DNA of 20,782 nt from Pedosphaera sp. (GTDB taxonomy: Bacteria > Verrucomicrobiota > Verrucomicrobiia > Limisphaerales > SIBH01). The notes beneath the pieces are model-generated. The model was not told the origin of the DNA, did not search any database, and saw nothing but the letters and a program-made list of their open reading frames with translations. Positions 5,342-15,134 of this stretch are shown in pieces (positions within the stretch are counted from its first letter, which is position 1; each line of letters starts with the position of its first letter). The stretch lies in contig JANOQV010000185.1 in assembly GCA_031414955.1 (NCBI GenBank), positions 1-20,782 of the forward strand. The letters are read 5' to 3'. A program made the translations under genes and the position numbers.

Positions 5342-5944
5342 ATGGCGTCGAAGAAAGATTACCCGAGCATGGATGACGTTGCGCTCTTTCGAGCAGCGCA
5401 AAAGGGCAACATGCCGGCTTTCGAAGAACTGGTGGCGCGCCACCGCGACAAGATTTACGCGCGCGCCTTCAGCATGATTCGGAACGAGGAAGACGCCACT
5501 GATCTTTCGCAGGAAGCATGGGTGAAGGCCTGGCAGCGGCTGAAACAGTTCCAGGGTGATTCAAGTTTTCTCACCTGGATGACGCGGATTGTCATCAACC
5601 TCTGCCTCGACAAGCTGCGCAAGCAGAAGCGCGAGCGGGCCGAGTCGATTGAGAACCTCGAGGAAGAGTCGGGCGGGGTGGAGCGGCTGATGCCCGCCGT
5701 GATCATCAACCCGACGGAGCGGCTGGAGCGGGGTGAGTTGCGGCAGAGAATCGACAAGGCGCTGGCCCTGCTCTCGTATGAGCACCGCACCGTGCTGATT
5801 CTGCATGAATTTGAAGAGCTGGAGTACAAAGAGATCGCGAAGCGAATGGAGTGCTCCATCGGGACGGTAATGTCCCGGCTGTTTTACGCGCGTCGCAAAA
5901 TGGCCGTGCTCATGGCAAGTTACAAACGCGAGGAAATGAAATGA
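5342..5944 (+). CDS. RNA polymerase ECF-family sigma factor
   Basis: Region 2 (AFEELVARHRDKIY..DATDLSQEAWVKAWQRL..F..WMTRIVINLCLDKLRK) and region 4 (LSYEHRTVLILHEFEELEYKEIAKRMECSIGTVMSRLFYAR). Alternative start at Met10 (5369). Confidence 0.95.
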   Translation: MASKKDYPSMDDVALFRAAQKGNMPAFEELVARHRDKIYARAFSMIRNEEDATDLSQEAWVKAWQRLKQFQGDSSFLTWMTRIVINLCLDKLRKQKRERAESIENLEEESGGVERLMPAVIINPTERLERGELRQRIDKALALLSYEHRTVLILHEFEELEYKEIAKRMECSIGTVMSRLFYARRKMAVLMASYKREEMK

Positions 5945-6441
5945 ACGTGGAATTGGGAATTAAATTACAGGCGCAGCTCGACGGTGAACTCACCGGCCGG
6001 GAGGCTCAAGAAGTCGCGGCGTTGCTGGAAATAGACGCCGAAGCCCGGGCCTTGTTCGTCGAGTTGCAACAGACGAAGTTGTTGCTCGCGGGGAACGAGC
6101 CGGAATTCCGCCTGCCTGAATCGCGCGAGTTTTTCTGGAGCAAGATCGAGCGCGAGATTTCACGCCAAGAGACTGCACCGTCCGGATCCACGCCGGTTTG
6201 GATACTCTTCTTGCAGCGCCATTTCGCCGCCCTTGGCACTACGGCGGTGGCTGCCGCACTGGTGATGTTTCTGGTCGTGAACTCGATGGTGCCAGCGATG
6301 TTTGAGGAGATTGAAAACCCGCTCGAAGATTCGGACTCCTTCTCCTTTCGCTCCGAATCACAGCAGATGACCCTGGTGTGGATCGCCAACCCTTATGTGG
6401 ATGGGGAAGACAACACCGAGGCCGCACCGGATCTCCAATAG
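5941..6441 (+). CDS. Putative membrane-anchored anti-sigma factor (166 aa)
   Basis: ATGA overlap with the sigma stop; N-terminal anti-sigma-like LQAQLDGELTGREAQEVAALL; one hydrophobic segment (FAALGTTAVAAALVMFLVV); short acidic C-terminal part. Confidence 0.8.
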   Translation: MNVELGIKLQAQLDGELTGREAQEVAALLEIDAEARALFVELQQTKLLLAGNEPEFRLPESREFFWSKIEREISRQETAPSGSTPVWILFLQRHFAALGTTAVAAALVMFLVVNSMVPAMFEEIENPLEDSDSFSFRSESQQMTLVWIANPYVDGEDNTEAAPDLQ

Positions 6442-9032: not shown

Positions 9033-10241
9033 TCAATAAGACCTTCGATACAGGTTGACGTTTTGCAGGATGCCAATCGCGATCAACGAGCAGAGCACCG
9101 AGCTGCCACCATAACTGAGCAGCGGCAACGGCACGCCCGTCACGGGCATCAGGCGGATGTTCATGCCGATATTGATGAACACATGGCTGAAGAAGAGCGT
9201 GACCACGCCCACCGCCAGCAGTTTGCCCAGGCGATCGCGCGCCTGGCCGGCAATTCTAATGCCCGTGAACAACACCACGGAGTACAACGCGATAACAATC
9301 ACGCTCCCCATGAATCCTTTCTCCTCGGCAATGACGGAGAAAATGAAATCGGTATGCGCCGCGCCCGGCGGCAGAAATCCCAGCGCCGTCTGGTCGCCCT
9401 CGCACCAGCCCTTGCCGGTCAGGCCGCCCGAGCCGACCGAGATCAGGGCCTGGCGTCCTTGGTAGGATTTGGCCCGCTGCAAGCGTTGCGCCTGCTCCCG
9501 TTGCTCCTTGGTGGCGTTGGGCGGCGCGAAATCCTTCCCGAAATAAACCAGCAGCCGCTGGCGCTGATACTCCTCCAGCTTGATCGTCCACCAACCCGGC
9601 GGAGCAAACAGGATATCCACGAGGAACAGTGCGGCCAGCAACCCGAGCAGGCCGATGAATTTCGCCATGTAGCGCCGCGGCACGCCGGACGCGATCATCA
9701 TCATCAGTCCCGTGGGTAAAAAAATCAGCGCCGAGCCGAGGTCCGGCTCCTTCATGACGAGCAGGAACGGCAGGCCGATCAGTCCGATGGCTTTGAAGAA
9801 AATCGCCGGCGAGCGCAATTCCTCCAGCGGGCGGCTCAGGTAGTTGGCAAAGGCCATGATGAACGCGACCTTGGCGAATTCCGAGGGCTGGAGGAGAAAG
9901 AATCCCAGATCAAACCAGCGTTGCGCCCCGCCCCGCATCGTGCCCAGGCCGGGAATCAACACCGCCACCAGCATCAAGATCATGATCCAGTACCCGACCA
10001 TCGACCACCGCGACAGCGAGCGATAATCAATGAAGCACAGGGCCAGGGCCGCGCCCAAACCGATGACGTACCAAAAAGCCTGCCGGACAAAGAGCGCCTT
10101 GTGCCACGGAATGGTGTTGGCCTCGTAGGCCAGGGTCGCGCTGTACACGAACAGCACGCCCGTCAGCATCAGGCCCGCCAGACTGGCGAGTTGGAGCCAC
10201 TCCACTCGCGACCGATTTTCAGTTTGTCCGATGGCAAACAT
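9033..10241 (-). CDS. rodA: Rod shape-determining protein RodA (SEDS peptidoglycan glycosyltransferase)
   Basis: GAQRWF, QPSEFAK, EPDLGSA, GSGGLTGKG, AHTDFIFSVIAEE, PVTGVPLPLLSYGGSS; multiple TM segments; directly downstream of mrdA. Confidence 0.95.
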   Translation of the reverse strand: MFAIGQTENRSRVEWLQLASLAGLMLTGVLFVYSATLAYEANTIPWHKALFVRQAFWYVIGLGAALALCFIDYRSLSRWSMVGYWIMILMLVAVLIPGLGTMRGGAQRWFDLGFFLLQPSEFAKVAFIMAFANYLSRPLEELRSPAIFFKAIGLIGLPFLLVMKEPDLGSALIFLPTGLMMMIASGVPRRYMAKFIGLLGLLAALFLVDILFAPPGWWTIKLEEYQRQRLLVYFGKDFAPPNATKEQREQAQRLQRAKSYQGRQALISVGSGGLTGKGWCEGDQTALGFLPPGAAHTDFIFSVIAEEKGFMGSVIVIALYSVVLFTGIRIAGQARDRLGKLLAVGVVTLFFSHVFINIGMNIRLMPVTGVPLPLLSYGGSSVLCSLIAIGILQNVNLYRRSY

Positions 10242-10242
10242 G

Positions 10243-12321
10243 TCAATTGCGCGCGAGCGAGTTTTTGCGCGAGGCTGCCGGTTGCTTCTCGCGGTCGCGC
10301 AGTTTTGTGTAAATTCTTTGCGCCACCGGAGCGCAGGTGCCGCCCCCGCTGCCCCCGCTCTCCACCATCACCACCACCGCGTAGCGGGGCTGTTCATACG
10401 GACCAAAGGAGGCAAACCAGGTGATATGATCGTCGGCCTTGGTGTGGCCCAGTTTGATCAGTTGCGCCGTGCCCGTCTTGGCGCAGATACGGAAACCCTC
10501 GACCTGCGCCTTGGTGCCCGTGCCCTCGGCGTCCTCGGTGTCGGCGAGCATGGCCTCGTGGACGAGGCGAAGCGTGCGCGAGGTGACGGGAAGCTGATCC
10601 CGGATGACGGGCCGCACCCCGGCGCGCTGCGCCGGATCGACGAGTTCATCTTGGCCCTGGGTCGAGAGGATGAGTTGCGGCGTGAGCACCCGGCCGCCAT
10701 TCGCCACGGCGGCCATGGCCACGGCCAGTTGCAGCGGCGTGACCAGTAAATCGCCCTGACCAATGGCGAGGTTCGCCGTGTCGCCGTTCTGCCACGGACC
10801 ACGGTTCTTCTTGATCCAATCGCGTGTGGGCAGGATGCCGCGGCTGTCCTGGCCCAGCGGGATGCCGGTGCGTTCACCAAGATGCAGCCGCTCGCCCATC
10901 GCGATGATGGCCTCGGGTCCGACCCGGAGCGCGTTGGTGATGAAGTAGCTGTTGCTCGACTTGATCAGAGCGCGCTTGAAGTTGTAAGGACCCGCATTGG
11001 CCGTGTCCCTGATCTTCCGTTGCCCGACGTAAATGCAGCCCTTCGGGGCATTCTCTGGATCGACCGCGACTTGGAAGATGCTGGCCGGGTCCAACGTGCC
11101 CGCCTCCAGACCCACGAGGGCCACGACTGTCTTGAAAGTCGAGCCAGGCGGATAGCCACCCAGTATCGCCCGGTGTTGCAAGGGCCTGGTGCTCTCGTCC
11201 ATGTACTCCGCGTAATCAGCCGCGCTGATGTGCGGGATGAACTTGTTCGGATCGAAAGCCGGAGCCGAGGCCAGCGCGATGATTTCACCCGTGCGGCAAT
11301 CCAACACCACCGCCGCCCCTCGCACCGGATGTCCCGCGCCGGGCGCATTCTTCAACGCCCTCTCGGCCTCGGCTTGCACCGCAGCATCCAGGGTCAAGGT
11401 CACGTTGCGCCCGGCCTCGACCGGTGACCACACGGTTTCGCTCTGGAGATAGCCGAGGTTGTTCACGAGCATGGACTTCGCCCCGGCCCGGCCGTGCAAC
11501 TCCTCATCCTGGGAATACTCAATGCCGGAGATGCCGCGATAATCAGGCAGCCGGTAATTGTAGAACGACAGCTCGTCCTCGGCCGACTCTTCGCTGCGTC
11601 GCAGGTAGCCAAGAACATGCGCGGCCACCGTGCCCTGCGGGTAAATGCGGATGGGCTGAATCTCCATGTCCAGTCCTGCCAGCCGTGTGCCCTGCTCGAG
11701 AAAGCGCGCGATCAGGTTCGAACTCAGCCCGGATAAAATCGGCATGGGCAGGGCGCGTCGTTGCTCGTAATGCTCGTGGAATTCCTTTTGGAACTTCGCC
11801 TCGTTGGTCACCACGACCTGCCCCAGCGCGAGACCAAGCTGCTGCACCAGATTGCTCGTCGCGGCATAACGGGAGCGGCGCAGGAGTTCGTTGCGTGTTG
11901 CCACATCCAGCTTGCGCGTCTCCTTGGGCAGGGAGCGCAGGCCGGTCCAGGCGAGAAAGCGGGCCAGCCACGAAGGCGGGCGCGCCGGTGCTGCGGTTCG
12001 CGCCACGGCCACCGCCCGCTGGCGAACGTATTCGTCCCAAGCCAGCGCCCGCCAGCCGCGGTCGTGCAGGTAGAGGCTGATGTTGTAAACAGGAACATTC
12101 TCCGCCAGCGCCACGCCGTGGCGATCGAGAATCTTGCCGCGCGGCCCCGGCACGCGGACGGTCCGCGAGGACTGATTGCGCTGGTCCTCGGCGTAATGTC
12201 CCGAGCGCACGACCTGCACCCACCAAAGCCCGCCGAACAAAACAGCGAGTCCCGCCGCCACGCACCAGGAGAGCAGGCGCAGATGGCGATCGGCTTTGTT
12301 GAGCTGGTCGAAGATTAGCAT
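10243..12321 (-). CDS. mrdA: Penicillin-binding protein 2 (class B transpeptidase), 692 aa
   Basis: N-terminal TM anchor, PRGKILDRHG, G-x-SGIE, YPPGSTFK (SxxK), SSN (SxN), KTGTAQ. Start at ATG 12321 (MLIFDQL); the ORF-track extension runs through the repeat element. Confidence 0.93.
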   Translation of the reverse strand: MLIFDQLNKADRHLRLLSWCVAAGLAVLFGGLWWVQVVRSGHYAEDQRNQSSRTVRVPGPRGKILDRHGVALAENVPVYNISLYLHDRGWRALAWDEYVRQRAVAVARTAAPARPPSWLARFLAWTGLRSLPKETRKLDVATRNELLRRSRYAATSNLVQQLGLALGQVVVTNEAKFQKEFHEHYEQRRALPMPILSGLSSNLIARFLEQGTRLAGLDMEIQPIRIYPQGTVAAHVLGYLRRSEESAEDELSFYNYRLPDYRGISGIEYSQDEELHGRAGAKSMLVNNLGYLQSETVWSPVEAGRNVTLTLDAAVQAEAERALKNAPGAGHPVRGAAVVLDCRTGEIIALASAPAFDPNKFIPHISAADYAEYMDESTRPLQHRAILGGYPPGSTFKTVVALVGLEAGTLDPASIFQVAVDPENAPKGCIYVGQRKIRDTANAGPYNFKRALIKSSNSYFITNALRVGPEAIIAMGERLHLGERTGIPLGQDSRGILPTRDWIKKNRGPWQNGDTANLAIGQGDLLVTPLQLAVAMAAVANGGRVLTPQLILSTQGQDELVDPAQRAGVRPVIRDQLPVTSRTLRLVHEAMLADTEDAEGTGTKAQVEGFRICAKTGTAQLIKLGHTKADDHITWFASFGPYEQPRYAVVVMVESGGSGGGTCAPVAQRIYTKLRDREKQPAASRKNSLARN

Positions 12322-12467
12322 GTGAGAAAAGCTCCAAGCTCCAAGAACCATGCTCCAGATAAACACCAAGCACCAAACTCCAACCCGCTCCACGAACGCA
12401 CACGCCGTTTGGAACTTGGGAATTGGAGCTTCCTTGGAGCTTGGTGCTTGGAACTTGGAGCTTTCAT
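12315..12467 (-). CDS. Putative 50-aa mini-ORF spanning element E1
   Basis: MKAPSSKHQAPRKLQFPSSKRRVRSWSGLEFGAWCLSGAWFLELGAFLTC*. The ATG overlaps the mreD stop (ATGA) and follows GAGAGGGAGGAA; its last codons overlap the mrdA start (ATG-C-TAA). Translation not demonstrated. Confidence 0.45.
   Translation of the reverse strand: MKAPSSKHQAPRKLQFPSSKRRVRSWSGLEFGAWCLSGAWFLELGAFLTC
12328..12464. repeat. Heptamer-repeat inverted-repeat (hairpin) element E1 filling the mreD-mrdA junction
   Basis: 56-nt arms at 12328-12383 and 12409-12464 with a 25-nt loop; 43/56 Watson-Crick. Left arm: aaagctc caagctc caagaac catgctc cagataaacac caagcac caaactc caa. Reverse complement of right arm: aaagctc caagttc caagcac caagctc caaggaagctc caattcc caagttc caa. 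Confidence 0.92.
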
Positions 12468-13015
12468 TTCCTCCCTCTCGCGATCTCCCGGTCTTGCCGG
12501 AAACTGGACTCAACCTGACGCTCGTAGCCGAGCAGGCGATACACCTTGTCGAAGATTCTGAAATAAACCGGTACCAGCAGGCCGCCGCCCAAGGTCATCA
12601 CCACCCATTGCCAGATGAAGCCGAGGCCCAGGAGCGGTTCGGCGCGGGAAGACAGGAGGATGACGAAGGTCAACAATGGCACCAGACCGCTGGCCATCGA
12701 GCCGAGGACGAGTTGGGCATAGGTCTGCTCACGCAGGATAAGGTGGGAAAATTGTTGCACCGCGAAGCCGATCAGGAACAAAGGCAGAATCGAGATGCCG
12801 AGCGGATTCGCCGAGAGCGAGTCAAACCACAAACCGCCCAACACGGAGAGCAACGATACGGTCAGCATCCCCGAACTCAGGCTCGCGTATACCATGAGGC
12901 CGGGCAGCAGATCGATCTGCGCCCCCAGGAAATGGCGGAAGAACCCGAACGACGACTCTGCAAACACCGCCAGAAACGCGAGCACGAGGATGAAGATGGT
13001 GTTGAGGGCGCTCAT
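12464..13015 (-). CDS. mreD: Rod shape-determining protein MreD (183 aa)
   Basis: Very hydrophobic multi-TM protein, IDLLPGLMVY and GGLWFDSLSANPLG motifs; lies between mreC and mrdA. Start at ATG 13015. Confidence 0.85.
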   Translation of the reverse strand: MSALNTIFILVLAFLAVFAESSFGFFRHFLGAQIDLLPGLMVYASLSSGMLTVSLLSVLGGLWFDSLSANPLGISILPLFLIGFAVQQFSHLILREQTYAQLVLGSMASGLVPLLTFVILLSSRAEPLLGLGFIWQWVVMTLGGGLLVPVYFRIFDKVYRLLGYERQVESSFRQDREIARGRK

Positions 13016-13158
13016 GCGAAAAAAGATCCAAGACCCAAGATCCAAGATCCAGAGAAACACCAGGCACCAAGACCCAAATGGCACATCCAATGAACTTGGG
13101 TGTTTGAAGTTTGGAGCTTCTCTGGATCTTGGATCTTGGTGTTTGGTGTTTTCATCAT
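13012..13158 (-). CDS. Putative 48-aa mini-ORF spanning element E2
   Basis: MMKTPNTKIQDPEKLQTSNTQVHWMCHLGLGAWCFSGSWILGLGSFFA*. ATGA overlap with the mreC stop at its start and ATGA overlap with the mreD start at its end. Translation not demonstrated. Confidence 0.5.
   Translation of the reverse strand: MMKTPNTKIQDPEKLQTSNTQVHWMCHLGLGAWCFSGSWILGLGSFFA
13022..13152. repeat. Heptamer-repeat inverted-repeat (hairpin) element E2 filling the mreC-mreD junction
   Basis: Left arm: aaagatc caagacc caagatc caagatc cagagaaacac caggcac caagacc caa. Reverse complement of right arm: aaaacac caaacac caagatc caagatc cagagaagctc caaactt caaacac. Perfect 22-bp core: 13035-13056 pairs with 13118-13139. Confidence 0.92.
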
Positions 13159-13970
13159 GGCATCATCACCCACACCTCTTCGAGCAGGTTCATCTTCACC
13201 GCGAGTTTCACACGCGCGACCGTGACGAGGCCGAATTCAACCGGGCGAGTGTCGATAACCTGTCCAATGAGAATTCCTTTGGGGAAAATTCCGCCCAGGC
13301 CGCTGGTCACGACCAGTTGGCCCGGCTTCACGGTGGTGGCCTTGGTGAGGTAGCCAAGTTCAACGATGCTTTCGTCCAGCACGCTGGAGCCGCCCGTGAT
13401 CACCCCGGTGTCGATGGTTTCTCGGTTCTGCGGCACATAGACGAGCGAGGCGACACGGCAACTCGGGTCGCCGATGAGCACCACGCGGGAACGGGTTTCG
13501 CTGACTTCGCTCACGCGGCCGATCAGACCCTCGGCGGTAAGCACTGGCGAATCCACGCGAAGGCCGTCACGCTTGCCGAGATCAATCTGGACGTTGCGCC
13601 ACCAGTTGGCCGGATCGCGACCGATGACGTGGGCCGCCTTGATTTTCCATGAGACCTGTTTCGGGAACTCCAGCATGGCGCGCAGCCGCCCGTTCTCGCG
13701 CTCGAGTTCGGTTTCTCGCTGCAACCGGACCTTCAGCTCCGCATTCTCGCGCCGGAGCTGTTCGTTCTGCTGGACGAGCGCCTTGCGGGGCACGATGGCA
13801 TTGCCGGCTTTCTCGCTCAGTTGCTGGCCAGAACTGGCCAGGCCGAAGGGCACTAGGAAAATACTGCCGAGGGCGAGCTTGAGCTGTGTCGAGGCGCGCG
13901 GGGAAAGGTTCAGGAAAATCGTCGTCAGCAAGAACACGACGCCCAGGGAGATGTAGTGGGAGCGATTCAT
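13155..13970 (-). CDS. mreC: Rod shape-determining protein MreC (271 aa)
   Basis: N-terminal TM, coiled coil (LVQQNEQLRRENAELK..LERENGRLRAML), AHVIGRDP, IDLGKRDGL, GLIGRV, VVTSGLGGIFPKGILIG. Start at ATG 13970. Confidence 0.93.
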   Translation of the reverse strand: MNRSHYISLGVVFLLTTIFLNLSPRASTQLKLALGSIFLVPFGLASSGQQLSEKAGNAIVPRKALVQQNEQLRRENAELKVRLQRETELERENGRLRAMLEFPKQVSWKIKAAHVIGRDPANWWRNVQIDLGKRDGLRVDSPVLTAEGLIGRVSEVSETRSRVVLIGDPSCRVASLVYVPQNRETIDTGVITGGSSVLDESIVELGYLTKATTVKPGQLVVTSGLGGIFPKGILIGQVIDTRPVEFGLVTVARVKLAVKMNLLEEVWVMMP

Positions 13971-14105: not shown

Positions 14106-15134
14106 TCAACCCTTTGCGGAACTGGTGACTCGCTTCAAGAATTGGAGCTCCTGCAACACCCGCCCGGTCCCGGTGACCACGGCGGTGAGCGGATCGTCGG
14201 CGATATGCACCGGCAATCCTGTTTCTTCCGCCACCAGCCGGTCGATGCCGCGCAGCAGCGCGCCACCGCCCGCCATGACAATGCCCCGATCCACGAGGTC
14301 CGCCGACAATTCGGGGGGACACCGTTCGAGGGTGATGCGGACAGACTCCAAAATACTTGAAAGCGGCTCCTGCAAGGCCTCGCGAATCTCTTCCGAGCGG
14401 ACGGGCAGCGTTTTCGGCAGCCCCGCGCCCAGATCGCGGCCTTTGACTTCCATGGTCAATTCCTGTTCCAGCGGAAAAGCTGATCCAATCCGGATCTTGA
14501 TCTCCTCCGCTGTGCGTTCGCCAATCATCAAGTTGTAGGCGCGCTTCATGTGCGCCACGATCGTCTCGTCAAATTCGTCTCCGCCCACCCGCAGGCTGCG
14601 GCTGAAGACGATGCCGGCGAGCGAGATGATTGCGATTTCGCAAGTCCCGCCGCCGATGTCCACGATCATGTTGCCCGCCGGTTCATGGACCGGCAGCCCA
14701 ACGCCGATGGCCGAGGCCATCGGTTGTTCGATCAGGTACACCTCGCGCGCACCCGCATGGGTGGCCGAGTCTTTGACGGCACGTTTCTCCACTTCCGTGA
14801 TGCCTGAGGGAACAGCGACCACAACGCGGGGCGCGATCAGTTTCCGGTGATGCACTTTCTGAATGAAGTGCCGGAGCATCGCCTCGGTAATCTCAAAGTC
14901 AGCGATGACACCGTCTTTCATCGGGCGGATGGCCACGATGTTACCGGGAGTGCGGCCCAACATGCGCTTCGCTTCTTCTCCGACGGCGAGGACGTTGGTT
15001 GTACCGGCCTGAATGGCAACGACGGAAGGTTCACGCAAAACGATGCCCTGATCACGGACATAGACCAACGAATTGGCCGTGCCCAGATCGATCCCAATGT
15101 CATTGGAAAAGAGGCTTTTAAGTTGCGCGAACAT
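14106..15134 (-). CDS. mreB: Rod shape-determining protein MreB (342 aa)
   Basis: [72 protein letters not shown]. Start at ATG 15134. Confidence 0.98.

Follow-up and report, generated by a model that had tools for sequence, protein, structure and literature searches.

Heptamer-armed hairpins at start codons of a verrucomicrobial mreBCD-mrdA-rodA operon and the relay reading frames that probably bridge them

The two elements that lie between cell-shape genes in this DNA, here called E1 and E2, are quite probably acquired hairpin inserts with arms built of 7-nt units (heptamers), which entered at start codons and have been made harmless by a short relay ORF running through each of them. Within the window (the whole stretch of 20,782 nt that was analysed) they occupy part of an mreBCD-mrdA-rodA operon of an uncultured Verrucomicrobium. 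Genes were called with our own hexamer model, and all genes and elements located below are on the reverse strand. Clear Pfam matches identify mreB (14106..15134; PF06723, E 5.7e-149), mreC (13155..13970; PF04085, E 2e-38; start set by the gene caller), mrdA, which encodes PBP2 (10243..12321; PF00905 and PF03717, transpeptidase and dimerisation), and rodA (9033..10241; PF01098). The PF04093 match of mreD (12464..13015) is weak (E 0.054, under the cut-off of the profile search), and the gene was identified by synteny and by homologues that relatives carry at the place between mreC and mrdA. E2 follows mreC and E1 follows mreD; rodA begins 1 nt after mrdA, with no insert at that junction. As we envisage the relay, a ribosome ending mreC (or mreD) would restart at the overlapping ATG, translate across the hairpin while unwinding it, and stop at or next to the start codon that the insert has displaced, where mreD (or mrdA) would then initiate, either through re-initiation or because a new 30S subunit loads where the RNA has been opened. 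The target of selection would be the unbroken frame and the position of its stop, not the peptide.

The E2 hairpin (13019..13155, -67.1 kcal/mol) has a short loop between a CCAAGAT-type 5' arm and a TTGGATC-type 3' arm, whose cores span 13112-13146 and 13028-13062, and the CCAAGCT-type E1 hairpin (12328..12464, -72.3 kcal/mol) has arms at 12404-12464 and 12328-12388. The E2 mini-ORF (13012..13158, 48 aa, with a second ATG at 13155) has ATGA at both entry and exit: its ATG overlaps the TGA stop of mreC, and the start of mreD lies inside its exit ATGA. The E1 mini-ORF (12315..12467, 50 aa) is entered through an ATGA that contains the mreD stop and leaves through ATGCTAA, so that its stop ends 7 nt inside mrdA. 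ATG-to-ATG distances are 146 nt for E1 and 143 nt for E2, both 2 mod 3. A sequence-only reading of the window had proposed these mini-ORFs, and their coordinates, ATGA ends and spacings were all confirmed. It had also described both elements as free of internal sense-strand stops, which is true of E1; E2 carries one TGA at 13154, on its 5' edge, where it serves as a second in-frame stop for mreC. The antisense stops that it placed at 12360, 13091 and 13105 are present, as is another at 12323. An Rfam search with the elements returned nothing over the gathering threshold and only sub-threshold matches of miRNA type hairpins.

E1 and E2 on their own do not give a significant result, a caution about two copies that was well placed, whereas the pattern across the family to which they belong is significant. 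The genome contains 102 near-full copies of heptamer-array hairpins, 82 of them between co-directional genes. Among the 48 junction-filling (tight) copies that possess an entry start codon, 43 carry a relay frame ending between -20 and +11 nt of the next start, compared with 15.75 +/- 3.0 (maximum 27) in 5000 chimera shuffles; this range was fixed after a first look at the data, and the nulls used the identical range. When the loops were shortened in silico, only 6 (1-nt deletion) and 3 (2-nt deletion) copies still relayed, and with entry held at ATGA 17 of 21 copies relay against 6.3 expected. By the same rule 8 of all 51 tight copies fail; inspection by eye assigned two of these to in-frame N-terminal fusions and one to a two-step relay, leaving five without a clear relay. 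The other 51 copies, which are not tight, were classed by rule, and fusions that the rule missed were added by eye. Some copies fused in frame resemble signal peptides.

Several general features that had been extrapolated from E1 and E2 survived in modified form. Most relay copies (31 of 43) adopt the 2 mod 3 geometry, but it is not a rule, as copies in phases 0 and 1 place a stop just before the ATG instead; in these phases 10 of the 12 frames in use have a stop inside the zone close to the start, against 1 of the 74 that are not in use. ATGA entry is likewise enriched without being universal: upstream stops stand in an ATGA or GTGA context in 39 of 51 tight copies, against 31.7% genome-wide, and entries range from -14 to +13 nt of the upstream stop, a spread consistent with insertion where the downstream gene originally had its start codon. 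Depletion of stops in all sense frames did not extend to the family (of the 43 relay copies, just 13 lack stops in every one of the three), and the supposed asymmetry between strands disappeared, with 66 sense and 70 antisense stops over the 51 tight copies.

Exits are tuned closely, 38 of 43 ending -5 to +4 nt from the next start. This bears on the proposal that the frame stays open solely to keep the RNA coated with ribosomes, as protection from RNase III cleavage or Rho-type polarity, with the downstream gene initiating alone. RNase III substrates include long helices, the genome has an RNase III gene, and the family hairpins are long and near-perfect, with a mean energy of -73.6 kcal/mol. 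Shielding of this kind needs no tuned exit, however, and we judge it very unlikely as the whole explanation, though it may operate in addition to the relay.

Comparison with relatives, those with names being mostly labelled Verrucomicrobiota, demonstrates gain or loss of the inserts at fixed positions and persistence of the frame. Across 30 loci, all 22 filled mreC-mreD and mreD-mrdA sites keep a relay frame while lengths, repeat units and peptides vary, which indicates that the frame, and not the peptide, is selected; these loci come from kin and are not independent, and a quick tree, with L031 left out, was used. Further filled junctions relay by rule in 4 of 5 cases. The eleven mreC-mreD inserts measure 85, 100, 121, 136 or 139 nt, and 11 of 11 are 1 mod 3. 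Where mreD begins ATGG (L014), the relay exits through TAATG. Where the mreC-mreD insert is absent, the two genes mostly meet in an ATGA overlap (14 of 18 empty sites); filled sites read RTGA ... ATG, and L013 preserves a precise empty site. These empty sites are also the starting point for a neutral account, in which insertion into an ATGA overlap simply duplicates the ATGA and CCAA-type heptamers happen to be stop-free, leaving meaningless ORFs. Pure CCAA units indeed encode no stop in any frame, and 1827 of 3339 ATG genes in this genome (55%) start ATGA regardless. Duplication would nevertheless leave length mod 3 free, contrary to the uniform mreC-mreD inserts; the other two sense frames are interrupted by stops in 15 and 23 of the 43 relay copies; copies that do not use ATGA have a stop shortly before the ATG; and the empty mreD-mrdA site usually shows no ATGA overlap. 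The neutral account is strongly disfavoured, and we leave it little probability.

Hairpins of a second type, built on ATGACGA, offer a separate view of the same constraint, since three or more perfect units force an in-frame TGA. Runs of this length occur on 1 of 30 5' arms and on 23 of 30 3' arms, so that the repeat is broken on the arm that would be translated; 23 of 30 copies in relatives relay, against a null of 15.4 (maximum 22). This pattern also speaks against the idea that the hairpin is excised from the message, as rRNA intervening sequences are, or that it brings the upstream SD to the downstream ATG and ribosomes jump across. Association with the 23S rRNA intervening-sequence protein family, precise empty sites such as L013 and stronger SD pairing at entry (mean -4.3 kcal/mol, against -2.8 at exit) would suit removal or bypass, but neither predicts the open loop frame, the length mod 3 or the avoidance of TGA on the 5' arm, and we consider them scarcely probable.

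Predicted structure indicates what an intact hairpin would do to the gene behind it. The predicted cost of opening the downstream start region is 15.6 kcal/mol when the hairpin is present, 8.3 once its 5' arm is taken away and 11.5 in 200 random genes; this occlusion appeared in the opening-energy measure alone, mean unpaired probability giving no extra occlusion (0.46 vs 0.48). The entry start is occluded as well (16.7 kcal/mol), and structure directly downstream of a stop reduces coupling according to the accessible part of a review (PMC12548453); the relay may therefore work at low efficiency instead of being transparent. The claim that mreD and mrdA lack SD sequences did not hold in that form. 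A GGAG from the last 3'-arm unit of E1 (12332..12335) lies 10 nt before the mrdA ATG, paired in the stem, and forms a duplex of -5.6 kcal/mol, and the SD-like pairing of mreD is weak (-3.1). Absence of an SD is moreover normal in this genome, as only 16% of 3048 ATG genes reach -4 kcal/mol; SD-like pairing at the exits is slightly stronger than in average genes. As no 16S 3' end could be located in the assembly, these values use a generic anti-SD.

The mini-ORFs could alternatively encode functional membrane-associated peptides. Those of E1 and E2 align, as had been noticed, with a basic/polar front and a Trp-rich hydrophobic back, and the in-frame fusions mentioned above lend the idea some colour. 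The likeness is, however, forced by the repeat, since a 7-nt unit yields the same 7-residue cycle in every frame. Neither peptide has a Pfam match, loops of operonic copies are unrelated (861 pairs, maximum identity 0.58), and relatives encode unrelated peptides at one and the same junction; a peptide function is the least probable of the explanations considered. The relay reading, in which the mini-ORFs carry translation across the hairpin to the next start, passed both the genome-wide and the cross-species sequence tests. We infer that the relay ORFs are translated, most likely to let ribosomes cross the insert, and they would couple to the next gene by one of the two routes given above.

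The origin of the inserts may be connected with PF05635, the four-helix-bundle family of 23S rRNA intervening-sequence proteins. Inverted heptamer arrays surround 14 of 28 PF05635 genes in this genus, compared with 5 of 1265 control genes. In this genome the PF05635 gene C241 begins with ATG and a CCAA-type arm, shares its arm family with the hairpins and has a full relay hairpin behind it; the link between hairpins and cassettes is one of association. E1 and E2 appear to be gene-less relatives of such cassettes, differing in that their loops carry no gene and lie in mRNA, and their kept frame argues against excision of the rRNA kind. A bolder and rather unlikely extension would treat the hairpins as the members without a gene in a mobile system that is built on PF05635 proteins and has no transposase. 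Such a system would take start codons as its targets, make its arms anew from the heptamers of each lineage and, thanks to relay ORFs, persist in essential operons; the protein would bind hairpin RNA and could hold back ribosomes simultaneously at dozens of operon junctions. Elsewhere in the family, 23 free-standing copies are nested in REP-like palindromes, and such flanks are confined to them. Compared with MITEs, which have near-identical copies and share terminal inverted repeats with a transposase-bearing element, the family has inverted arms and operonic loops that are all unrelated. We also recorded 12 Y1 transposase matches and two reverse-transcriptase matches.

The principle of a relay is already known from mycobacterial MIRUs, which the available text of PMC12548453 describes as dispersed repeats inserting at start codons and containing an ORF; this ORF is coupled, most often with a spacing of -4, to the gene that the repeat displaces, and expression is little disturbed. 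The hairpins share the dispersed intergenic location within operons, the bridging ORF (predicted in 43/48 copies and 22/22 orthologous junctions) and insertion at start codons, the same sites being empty in some relatives. MIRUs as described in 1997 reportedly had no dyad symmetry, whereas E1 and E2 are strong inverted heptamer arrays; loops here are unique to each copy, exits take several geometries tuned copy by copy, different species use different repeat units at one junction, the host belongs to Verrucomicrobiota and there is the PF05635 association. On this comparison of described function, the hairpins would seem to work like MIRUs, and we do not class them as MIRUs. Translational coupling through termination-reinitiation or RNA unfolding, as outlined in the accessible part of PMC12548453, is resembled in the -4, -1 and near-zero spacings at both relay ends and in a structured downstream start that translation from upstream would make accessible; the hairpins differ in needing two coupling events in series and in a relay ORF without conserved product. 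GTAG/CGTC-tagged REPs and REPINs (PMC3733652) are also palindromic intergenic repeats often touching stop codons, but heptamer arrays and bridging ORFs are not mentioned in the portion of that paper available, and E1 and E2 span stop to start directly without a tagged outer palindrome. The TAACTGA intergenic repeats of Beggiatoaceae (PMC4679880) similarly place 7-nt tandem units just upstream of start codons; they are direct and almost never inverted, with stops in all forward frames, and translational coupling is not mentioned in the available text. A literature search, mainly of freely accessible main texts, found no description of this type of hairpin-relay element.

The relay would explain how a hairpin of about -70 kcal/mol is tolerated inside an essential cell-wall operon, and it warns annotators that repeat-coded 'small proteins' of this kind would be relays. 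E1/E2-type elements would be ready constructs to separate re-initiation from coupling by RNA unfolding. The findings tie heptamer repeats to the PF05635 family, and the mobile-system reading, if true, would supply a function for this long-unexplained protein family and for bacterial heptamer repeats. With dozens of copies, and with different inserts at one junction across species, the hairpins would amount to a natural, replicated test in which translational coupling is so essential that non-coding inserts are shaped by it.

Gene calls and Pfam matches place an mreB-mreC-mreD-mrdA-rodA operon on the minus strand of the window. MreD, whose Pfam score lies under the cut-off, was assigned from its position and from homologues, and the named encoding records of its relatives are mostly labelled Verrucomicrobiota. 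Two hairpins, E1 (12328..12464, mreD-mrdA junction) and E2 (13019..13155, mreC-mreD junction), are built of CCAAnnn units in the 5' arm and their complements in the 3' arm. Each is crossed by a relay, a short frame running from the stop of the upstream gene (entry) to the start of the next (exit). The mini-ORFs reported by the sequence-only reading (12315..12467, 50 aa; 13012..13158, 48 aa), their overlaps, their ATG-to-ATG distances of 146 and 143 nt and the antisense stops listed were all found as claimed; E2 carries an additional TGA at 13154, which gives the mreC frame a further stop. Two other junctions in the window are ordinary coupled ones lacking an insert: mrdA-rodA (1 nt spacing, 10241-10243) and the gene pair at 5342-6441 (4-nt overlap, 5941-5944).

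An iterated nhmmer search of the host genome (G000; 6.55 Mb, 313 contigs, 62% GC) recovered 146 loci of the hairpin family. Among the 102 near full length, 82 separate co-directional genes, 14 divergent and 2 convergent ones, while 2 sit at a contig edge and 2 fall within called ORFs, according to our own hexamer-model gene calls, which reproduce the window's genes. Copies were termed tight (51/102) when the upstream stop lay no more than 25 nt away and the element end had an in-frame ATG/GTG at -2..+45 nt from it; the remaining 51 were inspected separately. An entry ATG/GTG is present in 48/51 tight copies, and in 43 of these 48 the frame opened there closes at -20..+11 nt relative to the next start, a success window chosen after a first look at the data and used identically for the nulls. 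Chimeras with 5' and 3' halves swapped between copies (5000 times) gave only 15.75 ± 3.0 relays (maximum 27). In-silico loop deletions of 1 and 2 nt left 6 and 3 relays, respectively, and where the entry is fixed by an upstream stop in ATGA, 17/21 copies relay against 6.3 expected.

Exits are -4 overlaps in 23 relays. The proposed 2 mod 3 phase is the commonest (31/43), but phases 0 and 1 also occur (6 each); phase 0/1 frames have a stop in the start-proximal window in 10/12 cases when used versus 1/74 when unused. Freedom from stops in all sense frames, also proposed, holds for only 13/43 relay copies, and the two frames not used for the relay are interrupted by stops in 15 and 23 of the 43. 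Strand-specific depletion was not upheld (66 sense versus 70 antisense stops over the 51 tight copies). By eye, the 8 tight copies failing the rule comprise 2 in-frame N-terminal fusions, 1 two-step relay and 5 without a clear relay. In two-step solutions, read by eye at G000:C244:10437, C152:75219 and the mreD-mrdA junction of one relative (L156), the first stop (of the upstream gene or first mini-ORF) falls at an ATGA inside the element and a second mini-ORF reaches the next start. These hairpin relays are a real feature under selection, and their translation is predicted from sequence.

Other copies occupy different settings. Hairpins fused in frame to a downstream protein (G000:C261:1300, C56:41422, C184:45154, C56:1504, C65:55630, C231:23719, C56:53296) give N-termini with a basic front, hydrophobic back and Ala-X-Ala-like end that look like signal peptides. 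Twenty-three copies stand free within REP-like palindromes, and the rule flags relay-like frames in only 3/23, one of them apparently mis-classed as nested. A near-identical free-standing subfamily (18-21 motif hits; G000:C311:4280, C150:9908, C230:14465 and others), embedded in REP-like palindromes of the CGTC type, may owe its spread to a REPIN-like unit that carries it as cargo.

Relay hairpins of the ATGACGA, GTCCAAG, GTTGAAG and AACTTTG families also occur in this genome (e.g. C84:35598, C94:26741, C204:12710, C156:16431, C113:13392), as do other-family copies without a relay (C125:5887, C32:6011, C183:14755). At C249:6036-6129 a different heptamer hairpin would be translated in frame directly before what we take to be a prepilin-like cleavage motif, in a leader that would be removed. 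An ATGACGA pattern search gave 496 matches in 12 genomes, 150 of them with locations; 60 regions from two genomes, together with loci from this search, yielded 52 elements (30 tight, 22 not). The tight elements relay in 23/30 cases versus a null of 15.4 ± 2.0 (maximum 22), in a sample that includes about four orthologous pairs and some failures due to mis-called upstream stops; 6 and 13 relays survive 1- and 2-nt in-silico deletions. An in-frame TGA is unavoidable by the third perfect ATGACGA unit, and runs of at least three such units occur in 1/30 5' arms versus 23/30 3' arms. The 5' arm, predicted to be translated, sacrifices pairing and so avoids the stop, which is hard to explain without translation.

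MreD was found in 38/41 genomes, with at least 30 mreC-mreD-mrdA loci; these relatives are kin, so the following counts are not independent. The 29 mreC-mreD junctions comprise 18 empty ones (14 with a called -4 ATGA overlap) and 11 filled ones, and 11 mreD-mrdA junctions carry inserts of at least 64 nt. The relay is kept in all 22 filled sites, E1 and E2 included, with exits from -8 to +7; five further filled junctions give 4 relays by rule, the fifth (L156) being the one read as two ORFs in series. The mreC-mreD inserts measure 85 (3), 100 (5), 121, 136 and 139 nt, every one 1 mod 3, and they differ in repeat unit (GTCCAAA, GTCGAGA, GAGTTTC, TTTTCGA, CCAAGAT types) and encode unrelated peptides. 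At L014, where mreD starts ATGG, the exit is TAATG; mreD-mrdA inserts occur in all three phases, the stop being matched to the phase in each case. Among the inserts of distant families, several (L022 mreC-mreD, L026, L029, L031) lack a clear heptamer array and may represent other kinds of element; at L031 (G002:C9:254284-254830) mreD is split across two frames, by either a frameshift or an assembly error. In a quick tree a well supported clade of filled sites includes the empty mreC-mreD site L013, and sites with inserts are spread over several separate families, which indicates recurrent gains and losses.

The hairpin raises the opening energy at the downstream start (-18..+12) to 15.6 kcal/mol (E1 19.9, E2 15.3) from 8.3 without the 5' arm, against 11.5 for 200 random genes; a simpler unpaired-probability measure there showed no difference. 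The entry start is likewise occluded (16.7 kcal/mol), so the mini-ORF would most likely be initiated by a ribosome terminating on the upstream gene. Structure just downstream of a stop reduces translational coupling, according to PMC12548453, and the relay may therefore also attenuate expression. Entries, located between -14 and +13 nt of the upstream stop, are preceded by purine-rich SD-like sequence (mean -4.3 versus -1.8 genome-wide). This is as expected if the element inserted at the original start codon, the former initiation site now presumably driving the mini-ORF. The peptide itself is a by-product, since any 7-nt unit encodes an identical 7-residue cycle in all frames, the loops of the 43 relay copies are mutually unrelated and Pfam gives no match.

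All four PF05635 genes (four-helix-bundle/23S rRNA intervening-sequence family) in this genome, located inside operons at C217:28957-29473, C137:15520-15970, C32:21037-21342 and C241:17863-18530, lie by eye between heptamer-like arms; one has a CCAA-type arm with the ORF start inside it. Coupled frames cross some arms by eye, and a 16-codon ORF (GTGA in, ATGA out) traverses the C217 right arm. Genus-wide, in a test using 32 of 61 matches, 14/28 PF05635 loci having both flanks satisfy a strict definition of inverted arrays, versus 5/1265 small control genes. The genome also contains an RNase III gene, together with matches to reverse transcriptase (2) and to Y1 transposase (12).

Mycobacterial interspersed repetitive units (MIRUs) are not known to have dyad symmetry, and the dyad symmetry of E1 and E2 sets them apart from that class. 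Our literature search, incomplete in coverage, found no account of heptamer hairpins with relay ORFs. PMC12548453 describes MIRUs as inserting at start codons and carrying an ORF whose coupling to the displaced gene is at -4. The relay principle is therefore already known, and the heptamer-hairpin element is a new variant of it.
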